Source of the DNA: a phage
Assembly (NCBI GenBank): GCA_012178725.1
Contig: GCA_012178725.1_3030.1
Direction: 5' to 3' (one strand)
DNA: 64,000 nucleotides
Shown piece after piece: positions 2,677 through 63,976 of the stretch; within the stretch, counting starts at the first letter, position 1, and every line of letters starts with the position of its first letter. Below the pieces are notes generated by a model. That model was given only the letters and a program-made list of their open reading frames with translations, made no database searches and had not been told where the DNA came from. The position numbers and the translations under genes are program-made.

Positions 2677-3333
2677 ATGGCAGCACCTAGAATATCATTT
2701 TCGCCCTCTGATATTCTATTTGGTGTTCTAGATCGCTTGTTCAAAGATAACGCTACCGGGAAAGTTCTTGCTTCCCGGGTAGCTGTCGTAATTCTTTTAT
2801 TTATGATGGCGATTGTTTGGTATAGGGGAGATAGTTTCTTTGAGTACTATAAGCAATCAAAGTATGAAACATACAGTGAAATTATTGAAAAGGAAAGAAA
2901 TGCACGCTTTGAATCTGTCGCCCTGGAACAACTCCAGATAGTTCACATATCATCTGAGGCAGACTTTAGTGCGGTGTATTCTTTCCGCCCTAAAAACTTA
3001 AACTATTTTGTTGATATTATAGCATACGAAGGAAGATTACCTTCAACAATAACTGAAAAATCACTTGGAGGATATCCTGTTGATAAAACTATGGATGAAT
3101 ATGCAGTTCATTTAAATGGACGTCATTATTATTCTGACTCAAAATTTGCTTTTTTACCAACTAAAAAGCCTACTCCCGAAATAAACTACATGTACAGTTG
3201 TCCATATTTTAATTTGGATAATATCTATGCTGGAACAATAACCATGTACTGGTATAGAAATGATCATATAAGTAATGACCGCCTTGAATCAATATGTGCT
3301 CAGGCGGCCAGAATATTAGGAAGGGCTAAATAA
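2677..3333 (+). CDS. t: Holin t
   Basis: 218 aa, near-identical to remembered T4 holin (MAAPRISFSPSDILFGVLDRLFKDNATGKVLASR...); one N-terminal TM segment; AAGGAGG SD and TATAAATA late promoter upstream. Confidence 0.95.
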   Translation: MAAPRISFSPSDILFGVLDRLFKDNATGKVLASRVAVVILLFMMAIVWYRGDSFFEYYKQSKYETYSEIIEKERNARFESVALEQLQIVHISSEADFSAVYSFRPKNLNYFVDIIAYEGRLPSTITEKSLGGYPVDKTMDEYAVHLNGRHYYSDSKFAFLPTKKPTPEINYMYSCPYFNLDNIYAGTITMYWYRNDHISNDRLESICAQAARILGRAK

Positions 3334-3606
3334 TTATTTGTTTGTATACATTTCTAAATATCTATATACACCCTCAAAACCCTCGTTGAATTCGTCGATG
3401 AGGGTTTTCTTATCTTCTTGAGTTAATTCAGAAACAATTTTACGGAATGAATTCTGATTTAATTTTCTACCTTCATGCGTTACTCCAATCTCATTCAGAA
3501 ATGCAATAAAATTAGCACGATTCTCAACAATATCTTCTCTGGAAAATTTAATCAAAATAGACGCAACAGTAATAATTTCACGAACTGTATCAATGTTTTT
3601 ATTCAT
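3334..3606 (-). CDS. asiA: Anti-sigma70 factor AsiA
   Basis: 90 aa, matches remembered T4 AsiA (MNKNIDTVREIITVASILIKFSREDIVENRANF...). Confidence 0.95.
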   Translation of the reverse strand: MNKNIDTVREIITVASILIKFSREDIVENRANFIAFLNEIGVTHEGRKLNQNSFRKIVSELTQEDKKTLIDEFNEGFEGVYRYLEMYTNK

Positions 3607-3618
3607 TAACTATACCAC

Positions 3619-3771
3619 TCAATTAGTTGACTTTGTTATAATATCATCAGACGCTTGATTTGTAAACTGGTCTGTGTTATTTTCTTCAAAAATTTTTTCT
3701 GCGAATTCCTTGAACGACTCACGTTCCTGAGCTACATTGTGCTCGATTACCTTTTCAAGATTATGACTCAT
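3619..3771 (-). CDS. Small acidic protein (asiA.1-like), 50 aa
   Basis: Hand-translated MSHNLEKVIEHNVAQERESFKEFAEKIFEENNTDQFTNQASDDIITKSTN*; its ATG overlaps the arn stop (ATGA). Confidence 0.4.
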   Translation of the reverse strand: MSHNLEKVIEHNVAQERESFKEFAEKIFEENNTDQFTNQASDDIITKSTN

Positions 3772-4046
3772 TCGAAATAATCTTCAATTTCGTAATCATG
3801 GACATAAATCATTATAGTTTTTAATACATCATCAATACTTTTTCCTGGAGCTGGAATTACGTAAAAATATCCTGCTTTTGAGAGGTCTTTATAAGTTCCA
3901 ACCAAGAAATCATTATTCTCGAGATGTAATTCTTCAACTAATTCATTAACAATTGAATGGTATAAATTTGGTAGAAACTTATATAGCTTTTCTAGAGTAT
4001 CAATTTTGATTGTGTATTGAACCACGGACTGAGAATCAATAATCAT
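3768..4046 (-). CDS. arn: Anti-restriction nuclease Arn (McrBC inhibitor)
   Basis: 92 aa, acidic; size and position between asiA and motA as in T4. Confidence 0.8.
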   Translation of the reverse strand: MIIDSQSVVQYTIKIDTLEKLYKFLPNLYHSIVNELVEELHLENNDFLVGTYKDLSKAGYFYVIPAPGKSIDDVLKTIMIYVHDYEIEDYFE

Positions 4047-9101: not shown

Positions 9102-9215
9102 TCACATAAATCCAAAGTAAACGTTTAATACATCAATCATTAAAACGATTGGGAATATACTCAAAACAACTAAAATTATAATTATATTCCATATAGCTTT
9201 AATAATCTTTTTCAT
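9102..9215 (-). CDS. Small membrane protein, 37 aa
   Basis: MKKIIKAIWNIIIILVVLSIFPIVLMIDVLNVYFGFM from internal ATG; GGAGGAAC SD; early-promoter cassette immediately upstream. Confidence 0.4.
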   Translation of the reverse strand: MKKIIKAIWNIIIILVVLSIFPIVLMIDVLNVYFGFM

Positions 9216-9220
9216 TTTGT

Positions 9221-9273
9221 GTTCCTCCGTGGTTGATAGGGTAATAATACCACAGAGGAACAGTCTTGTAAAC
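9221..9273 (-). promoter_or_regulatory. Early-promoter cassette with SD-complementary spacer
   Basis: GTTTAC AAGACT GTTCCTCTGTGG TATTATTACC...CCACGGAGGAAC ACAAA ATG. Confidence 0.55.
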
Positions 9274-9515: not shown

Positions 9516-9551
9516 TAGTTGTATAGTACCACGGTCCTTGTGGTATGTAAA
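9516..9551 (-). promoter_or_regulatory. T4-type early promoter
   Basis: GTTTAC ATACCACAAGGACCGTGG TACTATACAACTATCAA...GGAGAATAAA ATG. Confidence 0.55.
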
Positions 9552-13790: not shown

Positions 13791-13820
13791 ATTATACCAC
13801 ATCCTTGTGGTAAAGTAAAC
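13791..13820 (-). promoter_or_regulatory. Early promoter upstream of rIIA.1/rIIA
   Basis: GTTTAC-18 bp-TATAAT; -35 overlaps gene 39 stop. Confidence 0.6.
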
Positions 13821-15640
13821 TACTGGCTCATCCATTCTTTACGAAGGTCAGCATTATCTCCCATGAGCATTTCAAAAAGCTCTTTCCAGTTCTCAGGAAG
13901 TTTAACAACATCATATACTGGATTTTGAATCATCTCACGATATTCAGATTTTTCCAAAGAGCCAAGTCCTTTAATATAACGGATGCTATGTTTAGGTAGA
14001 GCATCTTTGGCACTCTCATATTCAGCGACTGTATAAAACCATTCTTGTTTTTTACCGACCTGAGCGATGATTACAGGAGTTTTGACAAAGCGAATTCGTC
14101 CTTGCTCAAACAGTTCTGGCCAATTACTAAAAAATCCAAGAAGAGAAGGATAAATGCTTCCTAGACCATCATGGTCAGCATCAGTCATAATAGCAATATT
14201 ATGATAATTCAAGTTTTCAGCTTTTTCACCAAGAACTAGACCAGTGATTGCGCAAATATCAAACAGTTCTTTGTTTTTAAGCATATCTGCATAAGACATA
14301 CCCCAGCTATTAAGAACTTTACCACGCAATGGATAACCACCGTGAAGTTCTTTATCACGAACATCAATAAGATATCCGATAGCAGAATCACCCTCAGTCA
14401 AGAAAAGAGTAGTGTCAGCATCTTTACCGCAAAGATTCGCTTTGATATGTTTATGAACCTTAGCTTTAGAAGCCTTTTTAGCTGCTTTAGTTTCTGCTGC
14501 TTTTTCTGCCGCCAATTTACGAGCCAAAGCAGCTTCAATAATCGGCATTAGAATTGCTTCATTATTTAGAATAGCACGTGAAATCTTTTTAGCATCAAGT
14601 TGAATATGACTACGGATTTCACCAAATGGAGAAGTCAAACGCTCTTTAGTTTGAGAATCAAATCGCATGTTTTTCATATCACGAACAAACATAACGATAG
14701 TCAAACATTCTTTGACACGCGCTTTGGTTACATCAATTTTGAACTTACGTTTGATTTGTGGAATAAGGTCTTCACAAATATCATCCATAACACAGTCAAT
14801 GTGATGGCCACCATTCTTAGTATGAATGTTATTCACATAAGTTAATTGACGAAAACCATCCGGTGAACGACCAACTGCAATAGAACAATTTTCTTGTTCT
14901 TGAACGATAGCATGCTCATCATATTGGCGTGCATATTTCTTAAAATTACCCTGAACCTTTTTACCATTAAAGGTAAATTGAATATCAGGATAAACAACAG
15001 CAAGTGTCTGGAGACGATCTAGTGTAATGTCAAGATAAACTTGGGACAGCTCATTAGTTTCAAATGACATAAAATCAGGAATGAAAGTAACACGAGTTCC
15101 TTTCCATTTTCCTGGAATAGTTTCCCATGATTTATTTTCCATGCCATTTGAACAACGAACTACAATATTATTTTGACCATCGCCAGTTTCACCAACAAAC
15201 ATCACAGAAAAAATGTTAGTTAAACTAGAACCAACACCGTTCATACCGCCGGTGACGCGTTCTTTATCATCACCGAAGTTACCACCTGCTTTTGGAATAG
15301 TCCATGCAGCAACAGGACCAGGAATTTCTTCACCGGTAGGTGTTTTAACCATCGCTTGTGGAATACCGCGACCGTTATCTTCAACTGTTACTTGATTGTT
15401 TTTAATAGTAACGTTAATTTTATTTGCGAATTTAAACTTAGTACGAATACCTTCATCTACTGAGTTATCGATAATTTCATCAATAAGCTTAACAAGACCA
15501 GGTACATACTGAACACTTTCCCATTTACCAAACAGAAAGCGCTCATGCATTTCATTAGCAGAAGAACCAATGTACATGCCGCTACGCTTTTTGATATGTT
15601 CAATATCGCTCAGAATTTTAATTTCATTCTTAATCATCAC
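13820..15640 (-). CDS. 39: DNA topoisomerase II large subunit (GyrB-like ATPase), uninterrupted gene 39 (T4 39+60 equivalent)
   Basis: 606 aa; GHKL ATPase and TOPRIM-like motifs; one continuous frame with no gene 60 split. Confidence 0.95.
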   Translation of the reverse strand: MMIKNEIKILSDIEHIKKRSGMYIGSSANEMHERFLFGKWESVQYVPGLVKLIDEIIDNSVDEGIRTKFKFANKINVTIKNNQVTVEDNGRGIPQAMVKTPTGEEIPGPVAAWTIPKAGGNFGDDKERVTGGMNGVGSSLTNIFSVMFVGETGDGQNNIVVRCSNGMENKSWETIPGKWKGTRVTFIPDFMSFETNELSQVYLDITLDRLQTLAVVYPDIQFTFNGKKVQGNFKKYARQYDEHAIVQEQENCSIAVGRSPDGFRQLTYVNNIHTKNGGHHIDCVMDDICEDLIPQIKRKFKIDVTKARVKECLTIVMFVRDMKNMRFDSQTKERLTSPFGEIRSHIQLDAKKISRAILNNEAILMPIIEAALARKLAAEKAAETKAAKKASKAKVHKHIKANLCGKDADTTLFLTEGDSAIGYLIDVRDKELHGGYPLRGKVLNSWGMSYADMLKNKELFDICAITGLVLGEKAENLNYHNIAIMTDADHDGLGSIYPSLLGFFSNWPELFEQGRIRFVKTPVIIAQVGKKQEWFYTVAEYESAKDALPKHSIRYIKGLGSLEKSEYREMIQNPVYDVVKLPENWKELFEMLMGDNADLRKEWMSQ

Positions 15641-16524: not shown

Positions 16525-16950
16525 TTATTCCTTAAAGTGTGCTTTCAACATCTGATACAAGGACCATGCCTGTTCATTATTTTCAATAGTAACTTTCATG
16601 ACCGGGAATTCTGTGAAATCTTCTATTTGTTCTTGCTCTTTCTCTTCCTGCTCTTGCTCTTCAGCTGCCTGGTATGGATTTTCAACTTCATCAAAGAACC
16701 CAGCTTCGCTAGTAGAAAGCCAGATAAAGTTTTCGTCAAGGATATCACCATGTGTTGCATATCCAACTGTGCCAGTAGATGTCACAATTTTAGTAGGACG
16801 ACCAAGATGGTCAACATCTAAAATTTTAAAAGGATGCATACCTAAACGGCGCGCATAGATTCCGTTATCAGTATGATCTTTAATAAAATTTTCTTGAGCT
16901 TGTTTATTTTTAAATTGATACCATTTATTAACTTCAAATTTAATAGCCAT
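16525..16950 (-). CDS. goF: Hypothetical protein with acidic tail (goF-like position and size)
   Basis: 141 aa; acidic run [18 protein letters not shown]; position between 39 and motB. Confidence 0.4.
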
Positions 16951-17165
16951 TAATAAGTTTCCTTCCAGTAAGTTGTGCCATCTTCAGTAATTTCACGAAA
17001 TACACCGTAAATTGGTTGTTTATCACCAACCTTTTCATACACATAAACCGAAGTCAAGTGAGTAAACTTAACGGTATGTTCTTTTTGAACTACTACCAAA
17101 TCTGGATCGAATAGTACATCTTCAAATTCGTCATTAGTGCAATTCTGAACAATTTTACGTTTCAT
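16950..17165 (-). CDS. Hypothetical protein (cef-like position and size)
   Basis: 71-aa ORF; ATGA overlap with neighbour. Confidence 0.4.
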
Positions 17166-17178
17166 TACAATTTCCTCA

Positions 17179-17448
17179 TTAATTGAACAGTGGAGCGATG
17201 CGTTTCAGAAGAGTAGCAGCACCTTTAGCGAATTTTACATCATGAAAAACAGTTTCTTCTTCCGTTACAACACGAGCTTTAATGTTTTCACAATCCCAAT
17301 TTTTGCGAACAATCTTCAAAAGCTGCAGTAAATCTTTACATTCAGCAATATCGATAACACATCCACGAGAATCTTCCATTATCGCACGATAACCGTAAGC
17401 CATACCATAATCATTGAAAGATTGCTCGATGATAATTAAATTTTCCAT
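17179..17448 (-). CDS. Hypothetical protein
   Basis: 89 aa from ATG (MENLIIIEQ...) with GGAGAATAAA SD; track ORF starts at an upstream TTG. Confidence 0.5.
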   Translation of the reverse strand: MENLIIIEQSFNDYGMAYGYRAIMEDSRGCVIDIAECKDLLQLLKIVRKNWDCENIKARVVTEEETVFHDVKFAKGAATLLKRIAPLFN

Positions 17449-17545
17449 TTTATTCTCCAAGTTGTTTTCTGTATCAGTAGTTGATATTGATATAGTACCA
17501 TAATCAACTACTGATGTATATAGTTTTATGAAAAAATTTTAAACT

Positions 17546-18037
17546 TTATGCATAGCGAGCTTTGCTATAGTGTTTAATCCAACTTTCAGGAATGACTTTG
17601 TATGTTCCTAAAAATACCGCGTTGTATAACTTAACGCCATCTTCTACCCATTGATCAGTAATGTATGCACACATAGCGCGAGTACGGTTAACAACACCTT
17701 CCTCACCTTCAGTAAATTCAAACTCATAAGGAGCAACGAACTTAATAGCCTGACCGAGTTTCCACTTAAAGTCTACACCTACATGCGAAGTATCAATCGT
17801 TTCAATTCCTTTAGCGGGAACAGCTTTCAAAAACGCAGGCTCAAGAAATTTCCATCGAACATAACCAAACTGAGGTTTAGACATTCCATCTTTAGGAATG
17901 ATACGCACTTTTACTTCAGAATCTTCATCTTTAACACCATGTTTAAGCTGAATGCTTACGACTTCAACCAATTTTCCTGCTGCTTTAGAACGGGATTTAT
18001 CAGATACACGAGCAATTTCACCGATATTAATATTCAT
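17546..18037 (-). CDS. motB: MotB-like DNA-binding protein
   Basis: 163 aa; T4 MotB size and position; shares C-terminal motif with adjacent paralog. Confidence 0.6.
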   Translation of the reverse strand: MNINIGEIARVSDKSRSKAAGKLVEVVSIQLKHGVKDEDSEVKVRIIPKDGMSKPQFGYVRWKFLEPAFLKAVPAKGIETIDTSHVGVDFKWKLGQAIKFVAPYEFEFTEGEEGVVNRTRAMCAYITDQWVEDGVKLYNAVFLGTYKVIPESWIKHYSKARYA

Positions 18038-18620: not shown

Positions 18621-19133
18621 TTAATCTAAGGTAATAAAGCCTTTTAATTCGGCATGCGATTTGCGAAACATTACTTGATGCCCACCAATGATAACTTGAT
18701 CATCTGGCACTTCATAAATCGCAATGTACATTCCACGATCTTTTAAGTCTTCACGCTCTTCTCGAGTAAACCATCTCATTATATCATATTCACTAGCGAA
18801 AGCAAAATGATATAATGCAATAAACCACAATGGAATATAATTTTCAATTCGTGAATAATCTTTATTCCATTTAGTTTTAATAGCATCATTAGCATTTTCA
18901 ACTAATAACTTATCATCGTGCGGAATAGGAATACTTTCATGACTTTCATAATTATCGCTATGATGATGAAATGACGATGAATTAATACCGCAAAATTTTA
19001 GCCAAGTTCGAGTTTTCATAGAATCAAATCCACGATAAGGAGTTGATTGAACACATAACTCTTGCCTAATTTTCATTATACCACTATCATCATTTAATGC
19101 GCTAAACGATGATTCAACACGATAAATTTTCAT
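18621..19133 (-). CDS. Hypothetical protein
   Basis: 170 aa from internal ATG (MKIYRVESS...) with GAGGATAATAAA SD. Confidence 0.5.
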   Translation of the reverse strand: MKIYRVESSFSALNDDSGIMKIRQELCVQSTPYRGFDSMKTRTWLKFCGINSSSFHHHSDNYESHESIPIPHDDKLLVENANDAIKTKWNKDYSRIENYIPLWFIALYHFAFASEYDIMRWFTREEREDLKDRGMYIAIYEVPDDQVIIGGHQVMFRKSHAELKGFITLD

Positions 19134-19196
19134 TTTATTATCCTCAGTAGCTATGGTGTTATAATACCACAACTGACCGAGGAAGTAAACAACTTT

Positions 19197-20606: not shown

Positions 20607-20612
20607 ATATCC

Positions 20613-26805: not shown

Positions 26806-26813
26806 TATTTATA
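26806..26813 (-). promoter_or_regulatory. Late promoter (TATAAATA on minus strand) for soc
   Basis: Reverse complement of tatttata about 30 bp upstream of the soc ATG. Confidence 0.55.
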
Positions 26814-26858
26814 ATAAATTCTCGCGGCTTTTAAGTCGTCGTTTATTTAAACGAGCTA

Positions 26859-27377
26859 TTAATAGCCTCGGTCTTGACGAGCGAAATTTTCAGCATTTTT
26901 CAGATAATAAAGTTTAAATATTTCTTCAGCTGACATTCCAAGAGCAATAAATTTATTCATGAAAAAGTGAAATTGGTCAATCAGTTCAAATTTAATTTCA
27001 AGCTGATCTTCAGGAGATAAGTCTTGAATTTTCTTGGATTGCATTTCAGAATAACGTTTCTTCCAAGGTTTCCATACGGCAGAAGCTTCTTTTTCACCAT
27101 TACTCATACCACCAAGAGAAGTATATAGCTCGCGAGTTTCATCTGCGATATAATCGTCTTGGTTTCGCAACCAAGCAAGAACTTCTCCTGCAGTTTCAAG
27201 TGAATCAGGATGACGATTTGTTTCTGGTTTATCATTAGCCAAACGAATCTGTAAATGCCGCTGCATATCAAGCATAACCTGCAGTGGGTCAATATTGTGC
27301 ATAATATTCTCAGCATATGCACGAGTTGCTTTATCAACACCTTCGATCAAATGAGCGCATTCATTAAAGTGAGCCAT
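26859..27377 (-). CDS. 56: dCTP pyrophosphatase gp56 (MazG-like)
   Basis: 172 aa from internal ATG (MAHFNECAHLIEGVDKA...); track ORF N-terminally extended; MotA-box middle promoter upstream. Confidence 0.88.
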   Translation of the reverse strand: MAHFNECAHLIEGVDKATRAYAENIMHNIDPLQVMLDMQRHLQIRLANDKPETNRHPDSLETAGEVLAWLRNQDDYIADETRELYTSLGGMSNGEKEASAVWKPWKKRYSEMQSKKIQDLSPEDQLEIKFELIDQFHFFMNKFIALGMSAEEIFKLYYLKNAENFARQDRGY

Positions 27378-27411: not shown

Positions 27412-27437
27412 ATTATACAATAAATATATAAAGCAAT
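27412..27437 (-). promoter_or_regulatory. Candidate middle promoter upstream of gene 56
   Basis: Minus strand TTGCTTTA - 11 nt - TATAAT. Confidence 0.45.
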
Positions 27438-27448
27438 AAGGAGGACAT

Positions 27449-32480: not shown

Positions 32481-33636
32481 TTAACTGTTCGAGGTCAGTT
32501 TCTAAATCAGCAGCTGATTTACTTTTACTTTCTGGAGATTTAAATTTTTCAACCTTTGAGTTAATCAATTCATCAACTTCAGCTTCAACAATTTCATTAC
32601 TATCAATAGCACCTAACTGATAAGCACGTTTAATAGCATCTCGGAATGGTTGATGCTTAAATAAAGGACCCCAGAATGTAGTGCAGTTGGTATCTTTTGC
32701 ACGCCAAGATTTTTCTTCGCGAATCATCTCGCCGGTTTCTTCGTCAAGAAATTCACGAGCATACCAACCATTCTTAGGTTTTACTACAAATCCTAATTCT
32801 AGAGCCATATCTAACAATCCAGAATAAGGATCGATACCACCGTCAAATTTAACATCAATAAAGAATTTACTTTTTTCTTTAACGGTACGAGATTTTTCTA
32901 CATTTAGAACAAATTGATACCCTTGAAGATCAGAACCATCTTTAATCTGACGCTTACCGATAATGAATACGGTATCAGCCGAATACATTACGCCTGTACC
33001 ACCTGTCATCACGGTTTTACTAAACATTTCAATTGTTTCAATTGTATGGTTAACCGCAACACATGGAATATTTTTAATGCTAAAGTAAGGAGTAACAATA
33101 CGGAATAATGACTTCAGTGATTTAGCACGAGTCATATCTGCCACAGATTTTTCATTCAAGGCATCTTCCGTTTCTTTCTTAGAAGCCATATTACCAATTG
33201 AGTCGATGAATACTATAACCTTTTCACCACGCTCAATAGCTTCAAGCTGATTCACCATATCAATTTTCAGCTGTTCAACTGATTGAATTGGCGTATGAAT
33301 TACACGTTCCGGGTCAACTCCCATGGATCGCAAATAAGCTGGAGTAATACCAAATTCGCTATCATAGAATAGACAAACTGCGTCAGGATATTTGTTCAAA
33401 TATGCCGCAACCATAGTCAAAGACATATTTGATTTAAAGTGTTTAGAAGGCCCTGCGAAAATAGTTAAACCAGACTGCATACCGCCATCAATCGCACCAG
33501 AAATAGCAATATTAAGCATTGGGATTTTTGTACGGATTACATCCTTTTCATTAAAGAATTTAGATGTAGTCAGTTCAGCAGTCATTTTAGAAGTGGAAGC
33601 TTTAATCAAACGGGATTTTAAATCTGCAATAGACAT
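32455..33636 (-). CDS. uvsX: UvsX recombinase (RecA-like)
   Basis: 393 aa; RecA fold motifs (GPSKHFKS Walker A); N-terminus resembles T4 UvsX. Confidence 0.95.
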   Translation of the reverse strand: MSIADLKSRLIKASTSKMTAELTTSKFFNEKDVIRTKIPMLNIAISGAIDGGMQSGLTIFAGPSKHFKSNMSLTMVAAYLNKYPDAVCLFYDSEFGITPAYLRSMGVDPERVIHTPIQSVEQLKIDMVNQLEAIERGEKVIVFIDSIGNMASKKETEDALNEKSVADMTRAKSLKSLFRIVTPYFSIKNIPCVAVNHTIETIEMFSKTVMTGGTGVMYSADTVFIIGKRQIKDGSDLQGYQFVLNVEKSRTVKEKSKFFIDVKFDGGIDPYSGLLDMALELGFVVKPKNGWYAREFLDEETGEMIREEKSWRAKDTNCTTFWGPLFKHQPFRDAIKRAYQLGAIDSNEIVEAEVDELINSKVEKFKSPESKSKSAADLETDLEQLSDMEEFNE

Positions 33637-33713
33637 TCATTTTTTCCATAGGCATCATTATATTTTCCTCACTGGTTAAAGATAGAGTAATTATAACACA
33701 ATAAATTTAGGCA

Positions 33714-34562
33714 TTAATCAACTGCTATTGGATGAATAGCATTAAACTTATGAAATGCTTCTGATTTTTCTTTACGAGAAACACACATGCGAAGAACCTT
33801 TAATGGCTCGTCTTCTTCACCCAACGATTTTCGTTTTTCAATATTAGAAGTTTTCCAACGAGCTTGCTCTGGAAACTCTCTATTGATTTGCTCAAGCGCT
33901 CTATTATGTTTAGAATTACTACGAATTGAACTGCACCCGCCAGGAGCTTGTGCTTTTCCAGATACAACCAGATATTTGAACAAGGCCAAATGCGGATAAC
34001 CTTGATTAATTAAATTGAGAAATGCATACATATCTTCGCATAAATCAATTTTTCCATACCCAATTTGTTCTGTCGTAAGTTTTCCGAGATCATACCATGT
34101 ATTCGTGAATCCATATGAATTTTCACGATAATTACCCCAAGATGAAGTAATTTTAAAAATAGGTAGACGAGCATGGCCATGATAATACCCACAATCCATG
34201 GCATCCTCAACATATTGAATCAATTCATAGAACTGTTCACGAGTCAATTGATTGACTTTATCCACACAACGACGATCATCTCTTTTTCGCATTGAACTCA
34301 TACGAATAGTAGTATCATCGTCAATCATCCAGATTCGTTGACCTGCATACATATCAGTAATTGCTTTACGAGTACCAGCAATTCCATTTACATCATCAGG
34401 AATAGTTATAATTTTAGCTCTAGACCCATAGGCATCATAATAAGCTTTTTCTTCGTGTTCACGCACTACAATATGGGGTTCATAATCAGTCGGAAACATA
34501 TCAAGGGCAGAAACTGCCCCAACACGCTGATAACTTGGAATTACGAATTGAATCATTTCCAC
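33714..34562 (-). CDS. Putative hydroxymethylcytosine-DNA glycosyltransferase (DxD-containing, GT-A-like) at the beta-gt position
   Basis: 282 aa; ...RIWMIDDDTTIRM... DxD motif; sits between uvsX and 42 where T4 has the 351-aa beta-gt. Confidence 0.5.
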   Translation of the reverse strand: MEMIQFVIPSYQRVGAVSALDMFPTDYEPHIVVREHEEKAYYDAYGSRAKIITIPDDVNGIAGTRKAITDMYAGQRIWMIDDDTTIRMSSMRKRDDRRCVDKVNQLTREQFYELIQYVEDAMDCGYYHGHARLPIFKITSSWGNYRENSYGFTNTWYDLGKLTTEQIGYGKIDLCEDMYAFLNLINQGYPHLALFKYLVVSGKAQAPGGCSSIRSNSKHNRALEQINREFPEQARWKTSNIEKRKSLGEEDEPLKVLRMCVSRKEKSEAFHKFNAIHPIAVD

Positions 34563-35293
34563 TCACCGTTATAATCTTTTTTCACAATATGAGTTTCGCC
34601 AGTATTCCACCAATGATCAACCAAGTAAAAATGACGAGAATATACATGAAGACTTCCAACATTCCATATAATAGAACCTGCTTTATACTGACGAGTTGAA
34701 TCGCCTGCATTCAAATCAGATACTAATTTATCTAATACGTATTTTTGCCATGCATAATCATTACGGAATCCGAAGACCACGTCATTTGAGCGCATGTTAA
34801 CAACCGCATTGATTTTCTTGTCACGAATCAGATACTGTACGGTATTCGTACACATGAAATCTGACATGCCATCTTTATTGTAGTCAAATTGCATGGATGG
34901 ACGAGTATAAATCATGATACCACGTCGAGAATCAGGATTTTGACCAAGTTCAGCTAAACACATATCATATTGAGCATAGTTATCTTCTGACCAGATAGCC
35001 CAACCATAATTCGAGTTAATTTCACCTTTAGAAGATGCTACTTGTTGCCAAATCTTCGGTGTTTCACCCGGAATATCTTTAACGAACAAGCTCTTAGATT
35101 TATACCATTCAAGTTCACGCTGAATGTATTCATCATTAAGAGCGCCAAAAATAAACGGTTCATCTGCTATAAATGATGCGCCAATAATTTCAATAGTTTT
35201 AACGCCAGTTTTATCAACTACGAAATCTTTTTCTTTTAATGCAAGCCCCAAATGAAGACGGATTTCTTCAACTGTCATAGAGTCACTAATCAT
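34553..35293 (-). CDS. 42: dCMP hydroxymethylase gp42
   Basis: 246 aa; thymidylate-synthase-like fold; T4 gp42 size. Confidence 0.95.
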   Translation of the reverse strand: MISDSMTVEEIRLHLGLALKEKDFVVDKTGVKTIEIIGASFIADEPFIFGALNDEYIQRELEWYKSKSLFVKDIPGETPKIWQQVASSKGEINSNYGWAIWSEDNYAQYDMCLAELGQNPDSRRGIMIYTRPSMQFDYNKDGMSDFMCTNTVQYLIRDKKINAVVNMRSNDVVFGFRNDYAWQKYVLDKLVSDLNAGDSTRQYKAGSIIWNVGSLHVYSRHFYLVDHWWNTGETHIVKKDYNGEWK

Positions 35294-36086: not shown

Positions 36087-36098
36087 AATAATTTCCTC

Positions 36099-36350
36099 TT
36101 AAAACTTAACAAATAACTTTAAAGCATCTTCAGTTTTAATTCCTTTTCTTACACCCATAACAGAAATTGGCTGTGACTGAAATTTTCCTTTACCATTATA
36201 AATTTCTAATCCAGTCACCATTCCATTTTGTTCTATAATACCGTAAGTGTTACCTTCATTTTCAAATTCTTTAACTTTAAAAAGTTTATTCGCTTTTTCT
36301 GCGTTAACAACTTTTAAATTTTGAATAAAATTAGTTTGAATATTTTTCAT
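36099..36350 (-). CDS. Hypothetical protein
   Basis: 83-aa ORF with GGAGGAAC SD and early-promoter cassette upstream. Confidence 0.45.
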   Translation of the reverse strand: MKNIQTNFIQNLKVVNAEKANKLFKVKEFENEGNTYGIIEQNGMVTGLEIYNGKGKFQSQPISVMGVRKGIKTEDALKLFVKF

Positions 36351-36355
36351 TTTGT

Positions 36356-36408
36356 GTTCCTCCGTAGTTGATAGTTGTATAGTACCACAGAGGAACGGTC
36401 TTGTAAAC
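36356..36408 (-). promoter_or_regulatory. Early-promoter cassette with SD-complementary spacer
   Basis: GTTTAC AAGACC GTTCCTCTGTGG TACTATACAACTATCAA CTACGGAGGAAC ACAAA ATG. Confidence 0.55.
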
Positions 36409-36483: not shown

Positions 36484-36513
36484 CTTGTATGAAAAAGGGA
36501 CCCGGAGGTCCCC
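36484..36513 (-). terminator. Rho-independent terminator downstream of gene 43
   Basis: GGGACC-TCCG-GGTCCC followed by TTTTTCAT. Confidence 0.6.
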
Positions 36514-46823: not shown

Positions 46824-48026
46824 TTATTTTGTAATAATGTCAAACTGTTCTTTAAAGCAGAAGCTTGAATCTTGATGCTGATACAAAAATTCATAAGCTT
46901 TTTCGCGTTCGCGGTCATAAAGAGTTCGATCAGATGACAGTTCTTTAATACGTTCAAATGTTGATTCCATGTCATTTTCATCAAACCAAATGATACCGCT
47001 ATCATGCGAGGTCAAAGGAGTATTATCAACACGGAATTTTAAATTTTCGCCAGTAGATTTCCAAAATACCGGAATTGTTCCACATGCACCAAGCTCGAGA
47101 TGAGTATATTCTAAAGAACGTTGTAGATATTTTTTATCCAACTTACTCAACTGATAACCAAAACCGGATTTACTCATACGTTCAAGCATTTCGCTATTTA
47201 CATAACGGTCAAGAATTTGCGTTGGCAAATTAGGAGCAATTTTAATTTGGTCTACTTGATGAAGACGATAATACTCGTATGGAATTCCTTTTTCTTTAAT
47301 AGGAATGAACGCTGGAGAACGTTCCAGACCTTCCATAATAGTACTTAGTCCTGCAGGTTTAAGATGTTTTTCATGAAAATCAAACATCTGATAAAAACCT
47401 TTCCATGTAGTCGTACGACCAATCCAACGGTTGATATTCATGTTAATTTCAGAAACATCTTTCCAGTAGGTTGATCGAACCTTCGCAATATCCATCGGAG
47501 GTTGAAAGTTATATACTGTCGGTGCTTCTTCAATATCATCAAACAGAGAAACTGTTTCAGGATACCATTCTTTCATCAGAACTTTATTAAAATCACCATT
47601 ATCAGAATGGCTAAAAATAACATCAGCTCGACGAACAGTTTCTTCTAATCCCAAATTTCGGCGCAAAGAAAGAGAAGAATGGTCATGTTGATAAACTACA
47701 ACACGAACAGAAGGTTTAATGTTATCAATAATTTTTTTATAGTTATTAATAGTGTCTTCTTCAACCGAAGTAGCAGGAACTGAATTGATAATTAGAATAT
47801 CACAATCATTTACCAGCTTAAGTGTTTTATCATATTCTTTTGCCAATAAAACCGGAATTGAAAATGATTTATAATCATGCGCGCAATTACGAGTAAATGA
47901 TTTATCTTTAGCATAAACCAAAGTTACTTCATGACCATTCTTAATAAACCAATCACGTTGCTCAAGAGAAAATTTAGTTACACCACAACCTTCAAGACCT
48001 CGAGCCATAAAAATACATACTTTCAT
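46824..48026 (-). CDS. agt: DNA alpha-glucosyltransferase
   Basis: 400 aa; N-terminus M.ICIFMARGLEGCGVTKFSLEQRDWFIKNGHEV matches remembered T4 alpha-gt. Confidence 0.88.
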   Translation of the reverse strand: MKVCIFMARGLEGCGVTKFSLEQRDWFIKNGHEVTLVYAKDKSFTRNCAHDYKSFSIPVLLAKEYDKTLKLVNDCDILIINSVPATSVEEDTINNYKKIIDNIKPSVRVVVYQHDHSSLSLRRNLGLEETVRRADVIFSHSDNGDFNKVLMKEWYPETVSLFDDIEEAPTVYNFQPPMDIAKVRSTYWKDVSEINMNINRWIGRTTTWKGFYQMFDFHEKHLKPAGLSTIMEGLERSPAFIPIKEKGIPYEYYRLHQVDQIKIAPNLPTQILDRYVNSEMLERMSKSGFGYQLSKLDKKYLQRSLEYTHLELGACGTIPVFWKSTGENLKFRVDNTPLTSHDSGIIWFDENDMESTFERIKELSSDRTLYDREREKAYEFLYQHQDSSFCFKEQFDIITK

Positions 48027-48050
48027 TTAATATCCTCTTTGTTTTGGTTT

Positions 48051-52368: not shown

Positions 52369-52839
52369 TTAATCATGTTTCCACACCCCATCGGTATTTG
52401 ACCAAAGTCGCTGATTATCTGATCCTCGCCACAGCTTTTTAGTCGGAAGATTTTTCTCATACTTCCCATCAATAATAACATCAACATATTTAAGCATTTC
52501 TAGTTGTTTAATATCTTCAAACTTATATCCTGTCCACAACCAAATGCTTTTATTGGGATAAAGATTTTTTACTGTTTGAACCACAGAGTGAATCACGTCT
52601 CTGTTATCAGGATAAAGAGGGTCACCTCCGGTTATAGTTAATCCTTCTATATAATCATTATTCAAACATTCAATCAATTGTTCTAGTGTTTCACCAGTAA
52701 ATGGAATACCATTTCTAGCATTCCATGTTGATTTATTATAACACCCTTCGCATTTATGCAAACAACCTGTAACGAAAAGAACGACCCTGCATCCAGGGCC
52801 ATTCACAAAATCACAGGGATAAAATCTATCGTAATTCAT
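52369..52839 (-). CDS. nrdG: Anaerobic ribonucleotide reductase activase NrdG (radical SAM)
   Basis: 156 aa; cysteine cluster CDFVNGPGCR...GCLHKCEGCYN. Confidence 0.9.
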   Translation of the reverse strand: MNYDRFYPCDFVNGPGCRVVLFVTGCLHKCEGCYNKSTWNARNGIPFTGETLEQLIECLNNDYIEGLTITGGDPLYPDNRDVIHSVVQTVKNLYPNKSIWLWTGYKFEDIKQLEMLKYVDVIIDGKYEKNLPTKKLWRGSDNQRLWSNTDGVWKHD

Positions 52840-54653
52840 TGGTGTTTAACCCTATGCATGATTTCTTTATTTTTACCGAGATTAAATCCGCGTTCGTTCG
52901 GATTTCCCAAATAACCACATGTTCTTCTTATTGTGTTCATCTTTTTAGGATCAGTTTCTCCACAAATAGAACAAACAAATCCGTTTTCAGTAGGAGTCAT
53001 TTCATGGGTACTTCCACATGTAAAACATTTATCTACTGGCATATTAACACCAAAATAATCTAAATGTTGTGCAGCATAATCCCATACGGCCTCAAGACCC
53101 TTTAAGTTATTTTTCATATCAGGAAGTTCAACATAAGAAATGTGACCACCTGTCGCAATGAAATGATATGGCGCTTCACGAGAAATCTTTTCAAACGGAG
53201 TAATATTTTCTTCTACTGAAACGTGGAAACTGTTAGTGTACCAGCCTTTATCGGTAACATCTTTTACACTTCCATATTTTTCTGTATCAAGTTTACAGAA
53301 GCGATAACAAAGGTTTTCAGCAGGAGTAGAATACAAACTAAAAGCAAACCCAGTTCTTTCAGTCCACTGTTTAAGACGAGCATTCATTTTAGTTAAAATT
53401 TCTCGTCCAATATCACGACCTACAAGAATATTCAATTCGTGAATACCAATGTATCCTAGAGACACTGAACTTCTGCCATTTTTAAATAACTCAATTATAT
53501 CGTCATCAGGTTTAAGACGAACCCCGAATGCACCTTCTTGGTAAAGAATAGGAGCAACAGTTGCTTTAACTCCTTTTAAGGAACTAATTCTACACATCAA
53601 AGCTTCAAAACACAAATCCATTCGCTCATTGAACAATTCGATAAATTTCTGTTCATTGAACTGTGTTCCAATATAAGAATCTAATGCGATACGAGGAAGA
53701 TTCAGTGTTACAACACCAAGATTATTACGTCCATCAAGAATTTCATTACCAGTCGAATCTTTCCATACGCTCAAGAAACTACGGCAACCCATCGGAGAAA
53801 CAGGAACAGATGAACCAGTGATAGCTTTATTGTTCTTAGCTGAAATAATATCAGGATACATCCTTTTGCTTGCGCACTCTAGAGCAAGCTGTTTAATATC
53901 ATAGTTTGGATCGTCTTTATAAAGATTAACACCTTCTTCAACAAACATAACAAGCTTAGGGAAAATAGGAGTTATCCCATCACGACCAAGACCTTTAATA
54001 CGATTTTTCAGAATTGCTTTCTGAATCATTCGTTCAGTCCAGTCAGTTCCCGTACCAAATGTAATTGTTACAAAAGGTGTTTGCCCGTTTGAACTAAAGA
54101 GAGTATTTACTTCATATTCATAAGCTTGGAATGCATCGTATACGTCTTTTTCTGTTTTAGATTGAGCATAATTCAGTGCATCGGCGATTTGCCATTTTTC
54201 TGCATCCTCAATATGTTTTGCATAGGTGCGTTTAACATAAGGAGAAAGTACTTTATCTACATTAGCAAAAGTCGTTCCGCCATATTGATGGGAAGCAACC
54301 TGTGCAGTAATTTGTGCCATAATTGCAGTAGCAACGCCAATTGATTTAGGAGTTTCAATCTGTGCATTACCAAGCTTAAATCCGTTCTCAAGCATTCCTT
54401 TTAAATCTACTAAACAGCAATTAGTAAATGGAAGAGCAGGGGAATAATCAATATCATGGAAATGAATAATTCCGCTTTCATGCGCTTTCATAATAAAAGA
54501 CGGGACCATATTTTTGGCAATGTGTTTAGACACAATACCAGCCATAAGGTCCCGTTGAGTTGGAAAAACACGAGAATCTTTATTAGCATTCTCGTTTAAA
54601 AGGTCTTTATTAGTTTTATGAATCAATCCTTCAATTTCTTTTTCAATTGTCAT
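52836..54653 (-). CDS. nrdD: Anaerobic ribonucleotide reductase NrdD, uninterrupted
   Basis: 605 aa; C-terminal zinc ribbon CFTCGS...CSICG and glycyl-radical region RRTCGYLG; single continuous ORF. Confidence 0.95.
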   Translation of the reverse strand: MTIEKEIEGLIHKTNKDLLNENANKDSRVFPTQRDLMAGIVSKHIAKNMVPSFIMKAHESGIIHFHDIDYSPALPFTNCCLVDLKGMLENGFKLGNAQIETPKSIGVATAIMAQITAQVASHQYGGTTFANVDKVLSPYVKRTYAKHIEDAEKWQIADALNYAQSKTEKDVYDAFQAYEYEVNTLFSSNGQTPFVTITFGTGTDWTERMIQKAILKNRIKGLGRDGITPIFPKLVMFVEEGVNLYKDDPNYDIKQLALECASKRMYPDIISAKNNKAITGSSVPVSPMGCRSFLSVWKDSTGNEILDGRNNLGVVTLNLPRIALDSYIGTQFNEQKFIELFNERMDLCFEALMCRISSLKGVKATVAPILYQEGAFGVRLKPDDDIIELFKNGRSSVSLGYIGIHELNILVGRDIGREILTKMNARLKQWTERTGFAFSLYSTPAENLCYRFCKLDTEKYGSVKDVTDKGWYTNSFHVSVEENITPFEKISREAPYHFIATGGHISYVELPDMKNNLKGLEAVWDYAAQHLDYFGVNMPVDKCFTCGSTHEMTPTENGFVCSICGETDPKKMNTIRRTCGYLGNPNERGFNLGKNKEIMHRVKHQ

Positions 54654-57525: not shown

Positions 57526-58451
57526 TTCAATACCTCAATAGCATTACGTAAACCATTTGCTTTTGCATTAAGAGCTTTTAACAATTTGGTGTGTTCTGCA
57601 ATTTGGGCTTCAACTTCAATCAAACGGGCATTGAGATATTCGCGTTCTTCACTCAGATTATCAACCTTTTCTACTTTAGGCTCTTTTACAACTGTCTTAT
57701 ATGTATTAGGGTTCTTCAGTTTAATTAGAATGCGTGAACTGTATAACATTGAACCATTATCTTCGGTTTCGTCATACATTTCCACTACGTCCATAATTTT
57801 TAACATCATGCGGAGTTTATAAGACAACGAACAAATAGTTTTGTTGTGCTTATTAATTTCTTTAGCTGTCATGGTGCCAAGATTACGTGAGTAATAATAA
57901 GGAACCTGGATATTAATTAATACTGATGAACCACCTGGCTTGTGTGTTACTTCATCAGCAATAACCCAGTCCTTAACATGAACTGTATTTGTACGGTCAT
58001 CGCCCGCGGTAAATAGTTTGCGAGCATGCTTAAAAAGCATATTCACTTGGTCATTGAATTGACAAGCAAATTTATCAGCAAATTTAGTTTCAGGAATGGT
58101 AGATAACCAATCAGCCAAATGAGTCTTTTTAACATCGTTAACAATAGTAAATTCAACCAAATCGGTTATAGATGTCTCAGATTTAATAAAGCTCGGCTTC
58201 ATAAAGTTTTTAATGTTATCGTGAGCTACAGTAGAAGATAACATACGAGAACGTTTAAACCATTCAAGCAAATTACCTAACGAATGAGAATAAGCGTTTT
58301 GAGTATCTTTACAGATATGATTTTCCTGGCCAACATATTGAAGGAAATCACGAAGAATATTATTGATTACTGCTCTGTGTCCGATCTGATAATTACGATG
58401 TTTAGTAATAAGACTGTCAAAATAATCAATATAATGTTTACGAGTTTTCAT
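57522..58451 (-). CDS. Member A of tandem paralog family with C-terminal coiled coil
   Basis: 309 aa; shared motifs with next three ORFs (see findings). Confidence 0.55.
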   Translation of the reverse strand: MKTRKHYIDYFDSLITKHRNYQIGHRAVINNILRDFLQYVGQENHICKDTQNAYSHSLGNLLEWFKRSRMLSSTVAHDNIKNFMKPSFIKSETSITDLVEFTIVNDVKKTHLADWLSTIPETKFADKFACQFNDQVNMLFKHARKLFTAGDDRTNTVHVKDWVIADEVTHKPGGSSVLINIQVPYYYSRNLGTMTAKEINKHNKTICSLSYKLRMMLKIMDVVEMYDETEDNGSMLYSSRILIKLKNPNTYKTVVKEPKVEKVDNLSEEREYLNARLIEVEAQIAEHTKLLKALNAKANGLRNAIEVLK

Positions 58452-61951: not shown

Positions 61952-62479
61952 TTATGCGAGTACCGTCTTTAACCGTTCTTCAAACTTCCGAAGAGTATTC
62001 TGGCGTTCAGCTCTTTGCTTTTTGTAAGTTTCAATACGCTCTGAAATGAGAGTGTATCGTTCATTTACTGATTCTTTCATAAAATCAGGAATTTCACGAG
62101 AAGCTTTAATCTCATCAAATTTATCAATAACAGCTTGCTCTTCAGCAATTAAGTTATCATACATCAAAATATCTTTCTTGATGAACTCAATATCTTCTTG
62201 AGTTACACGAGATAACTTAGATGCTTTATCCTTTTTGTACTGTTCGTTAGTATCACGAGACCAGTGTAATGTACGATTTTTATTCGTATTTTTGTAAATT
62301 TCTACAATACCAATCTCATCGATGATAACAATCCAATTCCAACGAGATTTATAAATTTGTCCTCCATCAACCGTGATTTCATCTCCAATTGAGATGTCAT
62401 TAAAGAACTTGCTTTGTGCTTCAGATTTAAATTTACCATCGTTGTAATTTACCAAGTTGAAAATATCTTTAGCATTCAT
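61952..62479 (-). CDS. Hypothetical protein
   Basis: 175-aa ORF; GGAGGAAC SD and early-promoter cassette upstream. Confidence 0.5.
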   Translation of the reverse strand: MNAKDIFNLVNYNDGKFKSEAQSKFFNDISIGDEITVDGGQIYKSRWNWIVIIDEIGIVEIYKNTNKNRTLHWSRDTNEQYKKDKASKLSRVTQEDIEFIKKDILMYDNLIAEEQAVIDKFDEIKASREIPDFMKESVNERYTLISERIETYKKQRAERQNTLRKFEERLKTVLA

Positions 62480-62484
62480 TTTCT

Positions 62485-62537
62485 GTTCCTCCGTAGTTGA
62501 TAGTTGTATAGTACCACAGAGGAACAGTCTTGTAAAC
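62485..62537 (-). promoter_or_regulatory. Early-promoter cassette with SD-complementary spacer
   Basis: Near-identical to the 36356..36408 cassette. Confidence 0.55.
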
Positions 62538-63939: not shown

Positions 63940-63976
63940 TAGTTGTATAGTACCATAAAGCTTTATGCTTGTAAAC
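63940..63976 (-). promoter_or_regulatory. Early promoter with palindromic spacer
   Basis: GTTTAC AAGCATAAAGCTTTATGG TACTATACAACTATCAACTGATACGGATTTGGAGAATAAA ATG; spacer holds 14-bp palindrome CATAAAGCTTTATG. Confidence 0.5.

Follow-up and report, generated by a model that had tools for sequence, protein, structure and literature searches.

Why would the spacer of an early promoter, which that promoter does not itself transcribe, be complementary to the ribosome-binding site belonging to the gene that the promoter serves? The question is raised by a stretch of phage DNA of 64,000 nucleotides (contig GCA_012178725.1_3030.1 of NCBI GenBank assembly GCA_012178725.1, hereafter the window), for which a preliminary description, made from the letters alone, proposed three copies of an early-promoter cassette whose spacer is the reverse complement of the downstream Shine-Dalgarno (SD) sequence. 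The window belongs to a Tequatrovirus: the stretch tested is 99.9% identical to phage vB_EcoM_Maryam and ~96% identical to T6, and the window is collinear with T4 from ~160 kb, via the origin, to 55 kb. The cassette has been known before, both as a T4 early promoter (nrdC.8, ndd.4) and as one of the promoter-early stem-loop modules (PeSLs), and the feature is real and non-random. What appears to be new is that a subset of early promoters encodes an anti-SD sequence in the spacer, kept by compensatory evolution and seemingly exclusive with upstream terminators. We found no paper that links early-promoter spacers to SD masking, and an earlier mention in Liebig & Ruger 1989 or Miller et al. 2003 is possible. 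A review of early promoters records 'additional regions of consensus' in T4 early promoters as unexplained and makes no link between spacer and SD (Hinton, PMC2988021). Our literature search found no T4 transcription-start map, and the main text of a T4 omics paper contains no gene-specific data.

Three early promoters with spacers complementary to the SD

Three near-identical 53-nt units lie on the minus strand at 9221-9273, 36356-36408 and 62485-62537, as had been proposed (Table 1). Each is composed of G-TTTACA (with the -35 element), a 17-nt spacer ending in TGG, TAYTAT (the -10 element), 6 nt, the predicted +1, the 3' arm of the inverted repeat, 5 nt, and ATG, with a leader of 22 nt. The final 12 nt of the spacer are the 5' arm, GTTCCTCTGTGG, and its complement, C(C/U)ACGGAGGAAC, is found in the leader with the SD GGAGG inside it. 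The two arms flank the -10 hexamer on both sides and are separated by a loop of 15-17 nt. A 12-bp stem with one or two G-U pairs had been claimed, and 12 pairs are indeed present, with one G-U pair in copy 1 and two in copies 2 and 3. The overall layout of the proposed consensus also stands but two details do not, as the loop of copy 1 is TATTATTACCCTATCAA rather than TACTATACAACTATCAA and the nucleotides before the ATG of copy 3 are AGAAA rather than ACAAA. The pattern GTTCCTCTGTGG-N(10-24)-CYACGGAGGAAC has three matches in the window, against 0.00 expected from 100 dinucleotide-preserving shuffles.

All three copies have the features of T4-type sigma-70 early promoters, namely TTTACA-N17-TA(T/C)TAT with TG at -15/-14, and the A/T fraction upstream of them is 0.67-0.88. 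They match T4 early promoters (UP, -35 GTTTAC, TGn, -10) in all consensus elements, in strand, and in position, each lying on the minus (early-gene) strand directly 5' of an open reading frame (ORF). Copy 3 is orthologous to the T4 nrdC.8 promoter (53883-53959) and copy 1 to the T4 ndd.4 promoter (166747-166822). The core that spans the -10 element and the initially transcribed region, TGGTACTATACAACTATCAAC, is common to other early promoters, an annotated motA promoter among them. Sequences related to the cassette were found in 545 phage records, at ~4-7 places per Tequatrovirus genome. The genes downstream of all three copies belong only to PHROGs of unknown function, and no Rfam 15 covariance model matched at its gathering score anywhere in the window.

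Predicted folding of read-through and promoter-proximal transcripts

We folded the sense RNA of each copy from the -35 element to the ATG. The predicted energies are -22.5, -19.4 and -23.2 kcal/mol for copies 1, 2 and 3 (z-scores of -5.5, -4.3 and -6.3, with none of 200 shuffles equally stable), and ViennaRNA lengthens the 12-pair stem to 13-15 pairs. The antisense RNAs are much less stable (-19.0, -12.4 and -15.6 kcal/mol) because of the G-U pairs. Read-through RNAs were folded with 60 or 120 nt of upstream sequence, and in these the helix dominates the ensemble. The SD is predicted to be paired with P>0.99 and each GGAGG base to be unpaired with P<=0.002, which bears out the suggestion that a read-through transcript should occlude the SD.

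The companion suggestion, that a transcript started at the cassette's own promoter lacks the 5' arm, also holds: the arm is located wholly upstream of the -10 hexamer and is therefore absent from any transcript of this promoter, whatever its exact start. That the SD is then free is predicted for copies 1 and 2, whose leaders are largely open (unpaired P 0.41-0.90), but less clearly for copy 3, whose leader is predicted to pair weakly with the coding region. The same folding procedure gave -15.1 (e), -11.7 (soc), -18.1 (49) and -20.7 kcal/mol (I-TevI) for the validated masking hairpins of T4, of which the e hairpin lowers translation ~100-fold (PMC3014915). The cassette helices match or exceed the validated hairpins in stability and should therefore be stable enough to mask.

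Evidence for selection on the helix

To ask whether spacers are matched to their own leaders, we catalogued early-type promoters (16 in the window and 31 in T4), calculated the duplex energy of each untranscribed promoter part against every leader, and compared cognate with permuted pairings. Cognate pairings are stronger both in T4 (-353.7 vs -265.3 +/- 14.6, p<5e-5) and in the window (-184.5 vs -146.2 +/- 12.7, p=0.002). The signal is carried by a subset of promoters at -17 to -26 kcal/mol (nrdC.8, ndd.4, regB, denV, dexA, alc, and alt.-3), with the others at background, so the spacer-SD architecture is limited to a subset of early promoters. In roughly a quarter of T4 early promoters the spacer pairs with the SD of the same promoter, and the stem sequences involved are unrelated, such as the arms UUCCUCUUGACUG/CAGUUAAGAGGAG of regB and UCUCCUGUAG/CUACAGGAGA of denV. 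An independent promoter of this kind was also identified in the window (19131..19196, Table 1), at the position of T4 8217 between dexA and motB.2; its cognate duplex of -17.4 kcal/mol ranks first of the 16. Mean SD accessibility in cognate versus chimeric read-through RNAs gave a weak signal (p=0.016 in T4 and 0.11 in the window) with a fixed -13..-5 window that misses some SDs.

The asymmetry between strands recurs among T4 early promoters. The sense strand is at least 7 kcal/mol better than the antisense strand in 10 of the 31, compared with 4% of random same-strand 61-mers (p=2.6e-4), and T4 early-promoter segments are also more structured overall than random segments (p=1.2e-4). Natural variation respects the helix: among 11 distinct complete cassettes (~30 copies from viral contigs, metagenomes, T4, and the window), five stem positions are polymorphic, every change is between C and U facing a G, and all 12 pairs are kept.

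As this nrdC.8/ndd.4 family offers no double changes, covariation was sought in a sister family. A different cassette, of the denV type, lies in front of NrdC.8 orthologues at 68-70% identity; here too the spacer, AUCUCCAGUAG, pairs with the SD of that same cassette, CUACUGGAGGU. The arms co-vary among the 25 distinct members of this family (TCTCCAGTAG/CTACTGGAGG, TCTCCTGTAG/CTACAGGAGA, and TCTCCATTAG/CTAATGGAGA), with AG/CT, TG/CA, and AT/AT as the covarying pairs. In an alignment of 17 members, non-pairing ones included, 81.2% of cells are paired (74.4% when shuffled), 13 cells are changed on both sides (6.1 when shuffled), and the covariation score is 0.279 (0.190 when shuffled); none of 500 shuffles reached the observed value of any of the three statistics. 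Slid registers of the same alignment are 34-55% paired. Strand asymmetry, cognate specificity, natural variation, and the compensatory changes of the sister family together argue for selection on the predicted RNA helix.

Hairpins of other kinds also occur at early promoters. In T4, the mobD.2, ipI, and dmd early promoters (57931-57999, 73900-73951, and near 20611) have 10-14 bp helices between the spacer and the region after the -10 element, across the +1. These can be formed by read-through RNA only and leave the SD free, and SD masking does not explain them. Two early promoters of the window have palindromes fully within the spacer (CATAAAG/CTTTATG at 63947-63975 and CCAC..GTGG at 9523-9551, both on the minus strand), a hairpin class that cannot mask an SD. 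NrdC.8 orthologues at 85% identity have a hairpin of spacer and -10 element in the promoter (AGGUCUAU..AUAGACCU, positions ~520-603), and in their minimum free energy fold the SD is also paired, with the U-rich end of the gene upstream, possibly a third masking route.

Upstream transcription and terminators

Early promoters are located 280 nt upstream of copy 1 and 1.4 kb upstream of copy 3 with no terminator-like site between (Table 1), and read-through into these two copies is expected from this arrangement. A canonical intrinsic terminator lies upstream of copy 2. Our terminator scan, which detects that terminator (36513-36496), had no hits at the three cassettes. The possibility that the cassette helix is itself a Rho-independent terminator was rejected on its sequence signature, given the loop of 15-17 nt and a tail, ACAAAAUG, without a T-run. 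Two other candidates were set aside. Translational coupling, in which an upstream ribosome melts the stem, is unlikely: between the upstream stop codon and the 12-bp stem there are 19 nt in copy 1 and 14 nt in copy 3, a gap that, judging from footprint sizes, is probably beyond the reach of a terminating ribosome. An RNase III site was left aside on length, as the helix has only 12-15 bp.

In T4, an intrinsic terminator is present within 120 nt upstream of none of the seven promoters with a strong spacer-SD helix and of 9 of the 24 others (one-sided hypergeometric ~0.065, computed by hand, with paralogues that are not independent). This suggests two alternative ways to neutralise upstream transcription: to stop it, or to render it untranslatable.

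A proposed translational insulator and its precedents

We propose that the cassette provides translational insulation, each gene being translated only from its own early promoter, and we regard this as a probable, if far from secure, explanation. The layout, the predicted thermodynamics, the strand asymmetry, the recurrence with unrelated stems, the sister-family covariation, and the insertion junction described below were established directly; from them we infer where transcription starts in vivo, that read-through RNA exists and in what amount, and how translation is affected. The cassette would be a portable early-gene unit (UP-like A/T tract, -35, TGn, -10, SD, and ATG) whose spacer doubles as an anti-SD arm. 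Polymerase starting ~7 nt after the -10 element would produce a transcript without the 5' arm and with a free, strong SD (GGAGG) on a ~22-nt leader. RNA from any upstream promoter would contain both arms, and a helix of 12-15 bp would form once the 3' arm emerges and would hide the SD. The downstream gene would thereby be translated only from transcripts of its own promoter and be insulated from piled-up upstream early transcription. Once the early promoters shut off, only masked read-through or middle transcripts would remain, and expression would for this reason probably be limited to the first minutes of infection. RegB cutting of the exposed GGAG in the proximal mRNA could sharpen this pulse and, more speculatively, untranslated read-through RNA may be prone to Rho-dependent termination. 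Since promoter, mask, and SD travel together and the loop is shared with other early promoters, the cassette would also serve as a recombination joint for already-insulated accessory genes.

In a review of T4 post-transcriptional control, the only genes listed with SD masking are e, soc, 49, I-TevI, and certain homing-endonuclease genes, and every one of them is linked to a late promoter (PMC3014915). The hairpins of e, soc, 49, and I-TevI and the cassette are alike in having the SD in the 3' arm and the 5' arm at or upstream of the promoter, with the long RNA masked and the proximal RNA open. They differ in that the former use gp55-dependent late promoters (TATAAATA) and delay translation to late infection, whereas the cassette is a repeated mobile unit with a sigma-70 early promoter, an arm in the 17-nt spacer, and early upstream transcripts. 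The likeness to e, soc, and I-TevI drawn in the preliminary description is therefore apt for structure and stability, which are comparable, but not for timing, as those promoters are late ('silent early, on late') and these are early. Because local and upstream promoters alike are early here, the logic must differ from that of e, soc, and I-TevI, and would be one of insulation together with silencing after early shutoff. The long RNA is predicted to hold the SD in a stable helix and the promoter excludes the 5' arm, as in the masking hairpins, but there is no late gp55 promoter. In its predicted working the cassette resembles the family of e, soc, 49, and I-TevI, without being a member of the late-promoter set.

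Several points weigh against translational insulation. Its temporal logic is unlike that of the precedents and its benefit is less obvious, and we found no published experiment on translation, transcription start, or read-through of these cassettes. Copy 3 has the weak predicted pairing between its own leader and its coding region, and masking is less needed at copy 2 because a genuine terminator lies upstream. Among the 11 distinct cassettes of the nrdC.8/ndd.4 family there are only wobble-type transitions and no double compensatory changes, and in the sister family kinship among the sequences inflates the covariation counts, with controls that do not fully remove relatedness. A test of SD pairing against shuffled spacers, applied to the early promoters as a whole, was not significant (p=0.10 in T4 and 0.23 in the window); we preferred the comparison of cognate with non-cognate pairings because shuffled C/U-rich spacers still pair with GGAG and because many promoters belong to another hairpin class. 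About half of the structured T4 early promoters (ipI, mobD.2, dmd, and motB among them) have the 3' arm before the SD, and promoter-straddling hairpins could have a more general role, with the overlap of the SD incidental on 22-nt leaders.

PeSL stem-loops, attenuation and recombination

PeSLs have been described as repeated intergenic modules, made up of an A/T-rich tract, a sigma-70-type early promoter, a stem-loop, an SD, and an ATG, that occur in plastic regions and at the boundaries of indels and replacements (PMC2839356, PMC4122927), and the ndd.4/.5 locus, which is the locus of copy 1, is a published example (Fig. 6A of PMC4122927). The cassette likewise combines an A/T tract, early promoter, stem-loop, SD, and ATG, is repeated in the genome, is associated with indels and replacements, and shows recombination within it, but its stem lacks the sequence signature of a terminator or attenuator (no T-run and no scan hit). 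Published PeSL stems occupy five positions (upstream of the -35, over the -35, within the spacer, over the -10, and after the -10 before the +1), none of them at the SD (Arbiol et al. 2010, PMC2839356; Comeau et al. 2014, PMC4122927). The stems of RB49 have the form G(n)-loop-C(n), and those of T4 and PST are placed upstream of the promoter with the form AGNA-loop-TCNT (PMC2839356, PMC4122927). The published T4/PST stems match intrinsic terminators that we found in T4. The authors interpreted PeSL stems as terminators or attenuators and as recombination sites and noted G-T pairs, and the word 'translation' is absent from the 2010 paper (PMC2839356). The cassette is the same module at the same kind of plastic locus, but its stem reaches the SD and its polarity is opposite to the G(n)-loop-C(n) of RB49.

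The alternative that survives best is that the helix is a PeSL-type terminator, attenuator, or 3'-end-stabilising hairpin of the upstream transcript, squeezed in by the tiny intergenic space, with the overlap of the SD a by-product of the short leader. We consider this unlikely. One RB49 PeSL stem-loop cut lacZ expression as much as rrnB T1 did (Arbiol et al., PMC2839356), but with the opposite polarity of RB49 stems that result does not transfer to the cassette, whose stem is followed by ACAAAAUGAAAAA without a T-run and is flagged by the terminator scan in no copy. That many T4 early-promoter hairpins straddle the -10 element without touching the SD, and that early-promoter segments, taken together, have more structure than random ones, would fit attenuation. 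However, a loop of 15-17 nt would be energetically wasteful for a plain hairpin, and the registers of the arms follow those of the SD (TCTCC/GGAGA vs TCCTC/GAGGA). The apparent exclusivity of spacer-SD helices and real terminators is compatible with masking and with attenuation alike.

Recombination at the cassettes is evident from copy 2. It marks a 274-bp segment after gene 43 (36087..36360, minus strand) that is absent from T4 in a blastn comparison of the window with T4 and contains an 83-aa ORF as well as the 3' arm with the SD. From 36361 on, near the border of loop and 3' arm, the sequence is again homologous to the T4 imm.1 promoter, and the T4 imm.1 locus has an orphan 5' arm, GTTCTTCCATGG, joined to a different leader. 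The 83-aa ORF was found in 38 phage records only (T2, RB27, and RB51 among them), always at this locus, and a Dhakavirus homologue with 54% identity is located elsewhere, downstream of a terminator and a denV-type promoter. In some genomes loops are exchanged between the ndd.4 and nrdC.8 loci, and chimeras in which the 5' arm is an orphan are found at imm.1 and e.8, always with the alternative leader UUGGAGAAUAAAAUG. A 3' arm was never found without a 5' arm (29/29 have both) and a 5' arm lacks its partner in 6/35 cases, counts whose ascertainment is biased by the search pattern.

Such exchanges are documented for PeSLs (PMC2839356, PMC4122927) and, with the insertion junction of copy 2, the loop swaps, and the orphan-arm chimeras, they would fit a cassette that is a homology block for modular gene shuffling, its inverted repeat being baggage without RNA function. 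We find this improbable, as a homology block does not need an inverted repeat, and the sense bias of the G-U pairs, the independent stems, and the compensatory changes would be left unexplained. Repoila et al. reportedly described, in 1994, 70-nt homologous blocks with an early promoter that flank internal-protein genes, and are said to have proposed that these mediate the shuffling of T-even accessory genes. Those blocks and the cassette are both repeated and promoter-containing, but their loci differ.

Two further observations concern the 83-aa ORF. In IME08, a UUCG-type terminator (GGTCTCACTTCGGTGGGACC followed by TTTTTT, at 596-625) lies directly upstream of the denV-type promoter of the homologue of this ORF, an order of terminator then promoter that matches the PeSL form published for T4/PST. 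In the window, an imm.1 homologue starts 12 nt past the stop codon of the ORF (36087-36098, minus strand) with its own SD, AAGAGGAAAT, and no promoter, and is therefore dependent on the promoter of copy 2 or on upstream transcription.

RegB cleavage of the SD

The RegB target is GGAGRAYARAA in single-stranded RNA, and secondary structure blocks the enzyme (PMC1702504, PMC3014915). The T4 nrdC.8 leader RNA was detected and its SD was 'moderately cleaved' by RegB, among 68 intergenic GGAG/U motifs tested in infection (Durand et al. 2006, PMC1702504). By analogy with this cleavage in T4, the nrdC.8 SD is probably transcribed early and partly accessible in vivo. The cassette sequence GGAGGAACACA matches the RegB/S1 consensus GGAGRAYARAA at 8/11 positions and is predicted to be single-stranded only in the promoter-proximal transcript, and the partial cleavage fits either this imperfect match or a mix of open and masked RNAs. 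Like known RegB/S1 sites, the cassette carries GGAG(G) within an early-mRNA SD, but its match is imperfect, whereas the leader UUGGAGAAUAAAAUG of the chimeras is a perfect RegB site.

The helix might instead control attack by RegB, with the GGAG of long transcripts shielded and the proximal mRNA cut, such that the selected effect is differential mRNA decay and not translation. The enzyme's requirement for single-stranded GGAG, the moderate cleavage of the nrdC.8 SD in vivo, and the regB promoter, which shares the architecture and whose mRNA is cut in its SD, would all agree with this. We nevertheless give it little credence: besides the incomplete consensus match of the cassette, denV has the helix and yet an SD that is RegB-resistant for sequence reasons (PMC1702504), and a masked SD would be untranslatable anyway, so that its protection would be of little consequence for that gene. 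Control of RegB complements translational insulation more than it excludes it. Separately, a perfect RegB/S1 consensus, GGAGAAUAAAA, is found directly before the ATG in three leaders of the window (9495, 17458, and 63922, minus strand), and chimeric cassettes have this leader module as an alternative to the hairpin-forming one.

A DNA-level palindrome, acting as a cruciform or as a dimeric-protein site that regulates the promoter, is very improbable: the inverted repeat does bracket the -10 element and perfect in-spacer palindromes exist at the 63975 and 9551 promoters, but one to three of the 12 pairs are G-U pairs, which do not match in DNA or on the opposite strand, and arms that differ wholly between promoters leave no common protein site.

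Features of the window and differences from T4

Table 1. Coordinates of the cassettes, the genes behind them, and associated promoters and terminator in the window.
Feature	Coordinates	Strand	Details
Copy 1, ndd.4-type	9221..9273	-	G+TTTACA (-35) 9273-9267; 5' arm GTTCCTCTGTGG 9261-9250; -10 TATTAT 9249-9244; predicted +1 near 9237; 3' arm CCACGGAGGAAC 9232-9221; SD GGAGG 9228-9224
Copy 2	36356..36408	-	-35 36407-36402; 5' arm 36396-36385; -10 TACTAT 36384-36379; predicted +1 near 36372; 3' arm CTACGGAGGAAC 36367-36356; SD GGAGG 36363-36359
Copy 3, nrdC.8 promoter	62485..62537	-	-35 62536-62531; 5' arm 62525-62514; -10 62513-62508; predicted +1 near 62501; 3' arm 62496-62485; SD GGAGG 62492-62488
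37-aa membrane-type ORF behind copy 1, ndd.4 homologue	9102..9215	-	ATG 9215-9213; phrog_3098
83-aa accessory ORF behind copy 2	36099-36350	-	phrog_18567
175-aa NrdC.8 homologue behind copy 3	61952..62479	-	phrog_2274
Independent promoter of the same architecture	19131..19196	-	Spacer UCCUCGGU pairs with own SD ACUGAGGA; stem unrelated to the three copies
Early promoter upstream of copy 1	9523..9551	-	Expected to feed read-through into copy 1; no terminator-like site between
Early promoter upstream of copy 3, nrdC.10-type	63947..63975	-	Expected to feed read-through into copy 3; no terminator-like site between
Canonical intrinsic terminator after gene 43, upstream of copy 2	36496..36513	-	GGGGACC..GGGTCCC then TTTTT

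The comparison with T4 also revealed differences away from the cassettes. A single 606-aa ORF (13820-15640, minus strand) spans T4 genes 39 and 60, and in place of T4 2793-3911, which holds the bypass region of gene 60, 60.1, and mobA, the window has 64 nt. From this comparison, the topoisomerase large subunit of the phage appears to be unsplit and the translational-bypass element to be absent. Also absent or replaced relative to T4 are segF, a segment of the dam region (T4 16825-17725), segA and beta-gt (with 946 nt of other sequence instead), mobB, mobC, and the nrdD intron with I-TevII. The corresponding gaps in the window are at 26813-26859, 27417-27438, 33624-34571, 48017-48042, 52819-52839, and 54115-54118.

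Implications for T4-like phages

If the mask works as proposed, T4-like phages would solve at the translational level the read-through problem that comes with densely packed and very strong early promoters. Immediate-early genes, toxic ones included (T4 regB, alc, denV, and dexA), would each get a short, self-contained pulse of synthesis. PeSLs would then be, beyond recombination joints or terminators, portable insulated expression units that make horizontal insertion safe. The cassette would also be a natural part of ~55 bp for synthetic biology, a promoter whose downstream ribosome-binding site ignores upstream transcription, and RNA-seq coverage of early genes in T4-like phages need not predict protein output.

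More tentatively, spacer anti-SD arms may be a general, unrecognised layer of early control in T4-like phages, used by about a quarter to nearly half of the promoters as an alternative to an upstream terminator and travelling with the promoter as a 'promoter plus translational insulator' unit; we hold this to be possible rather than probable. Such a layer would explain how accessory genes are shuffled into dense early operons without over-expression or mistiming, and it may account for the reported mismatches in timing between T4 early transcripts and proteins.

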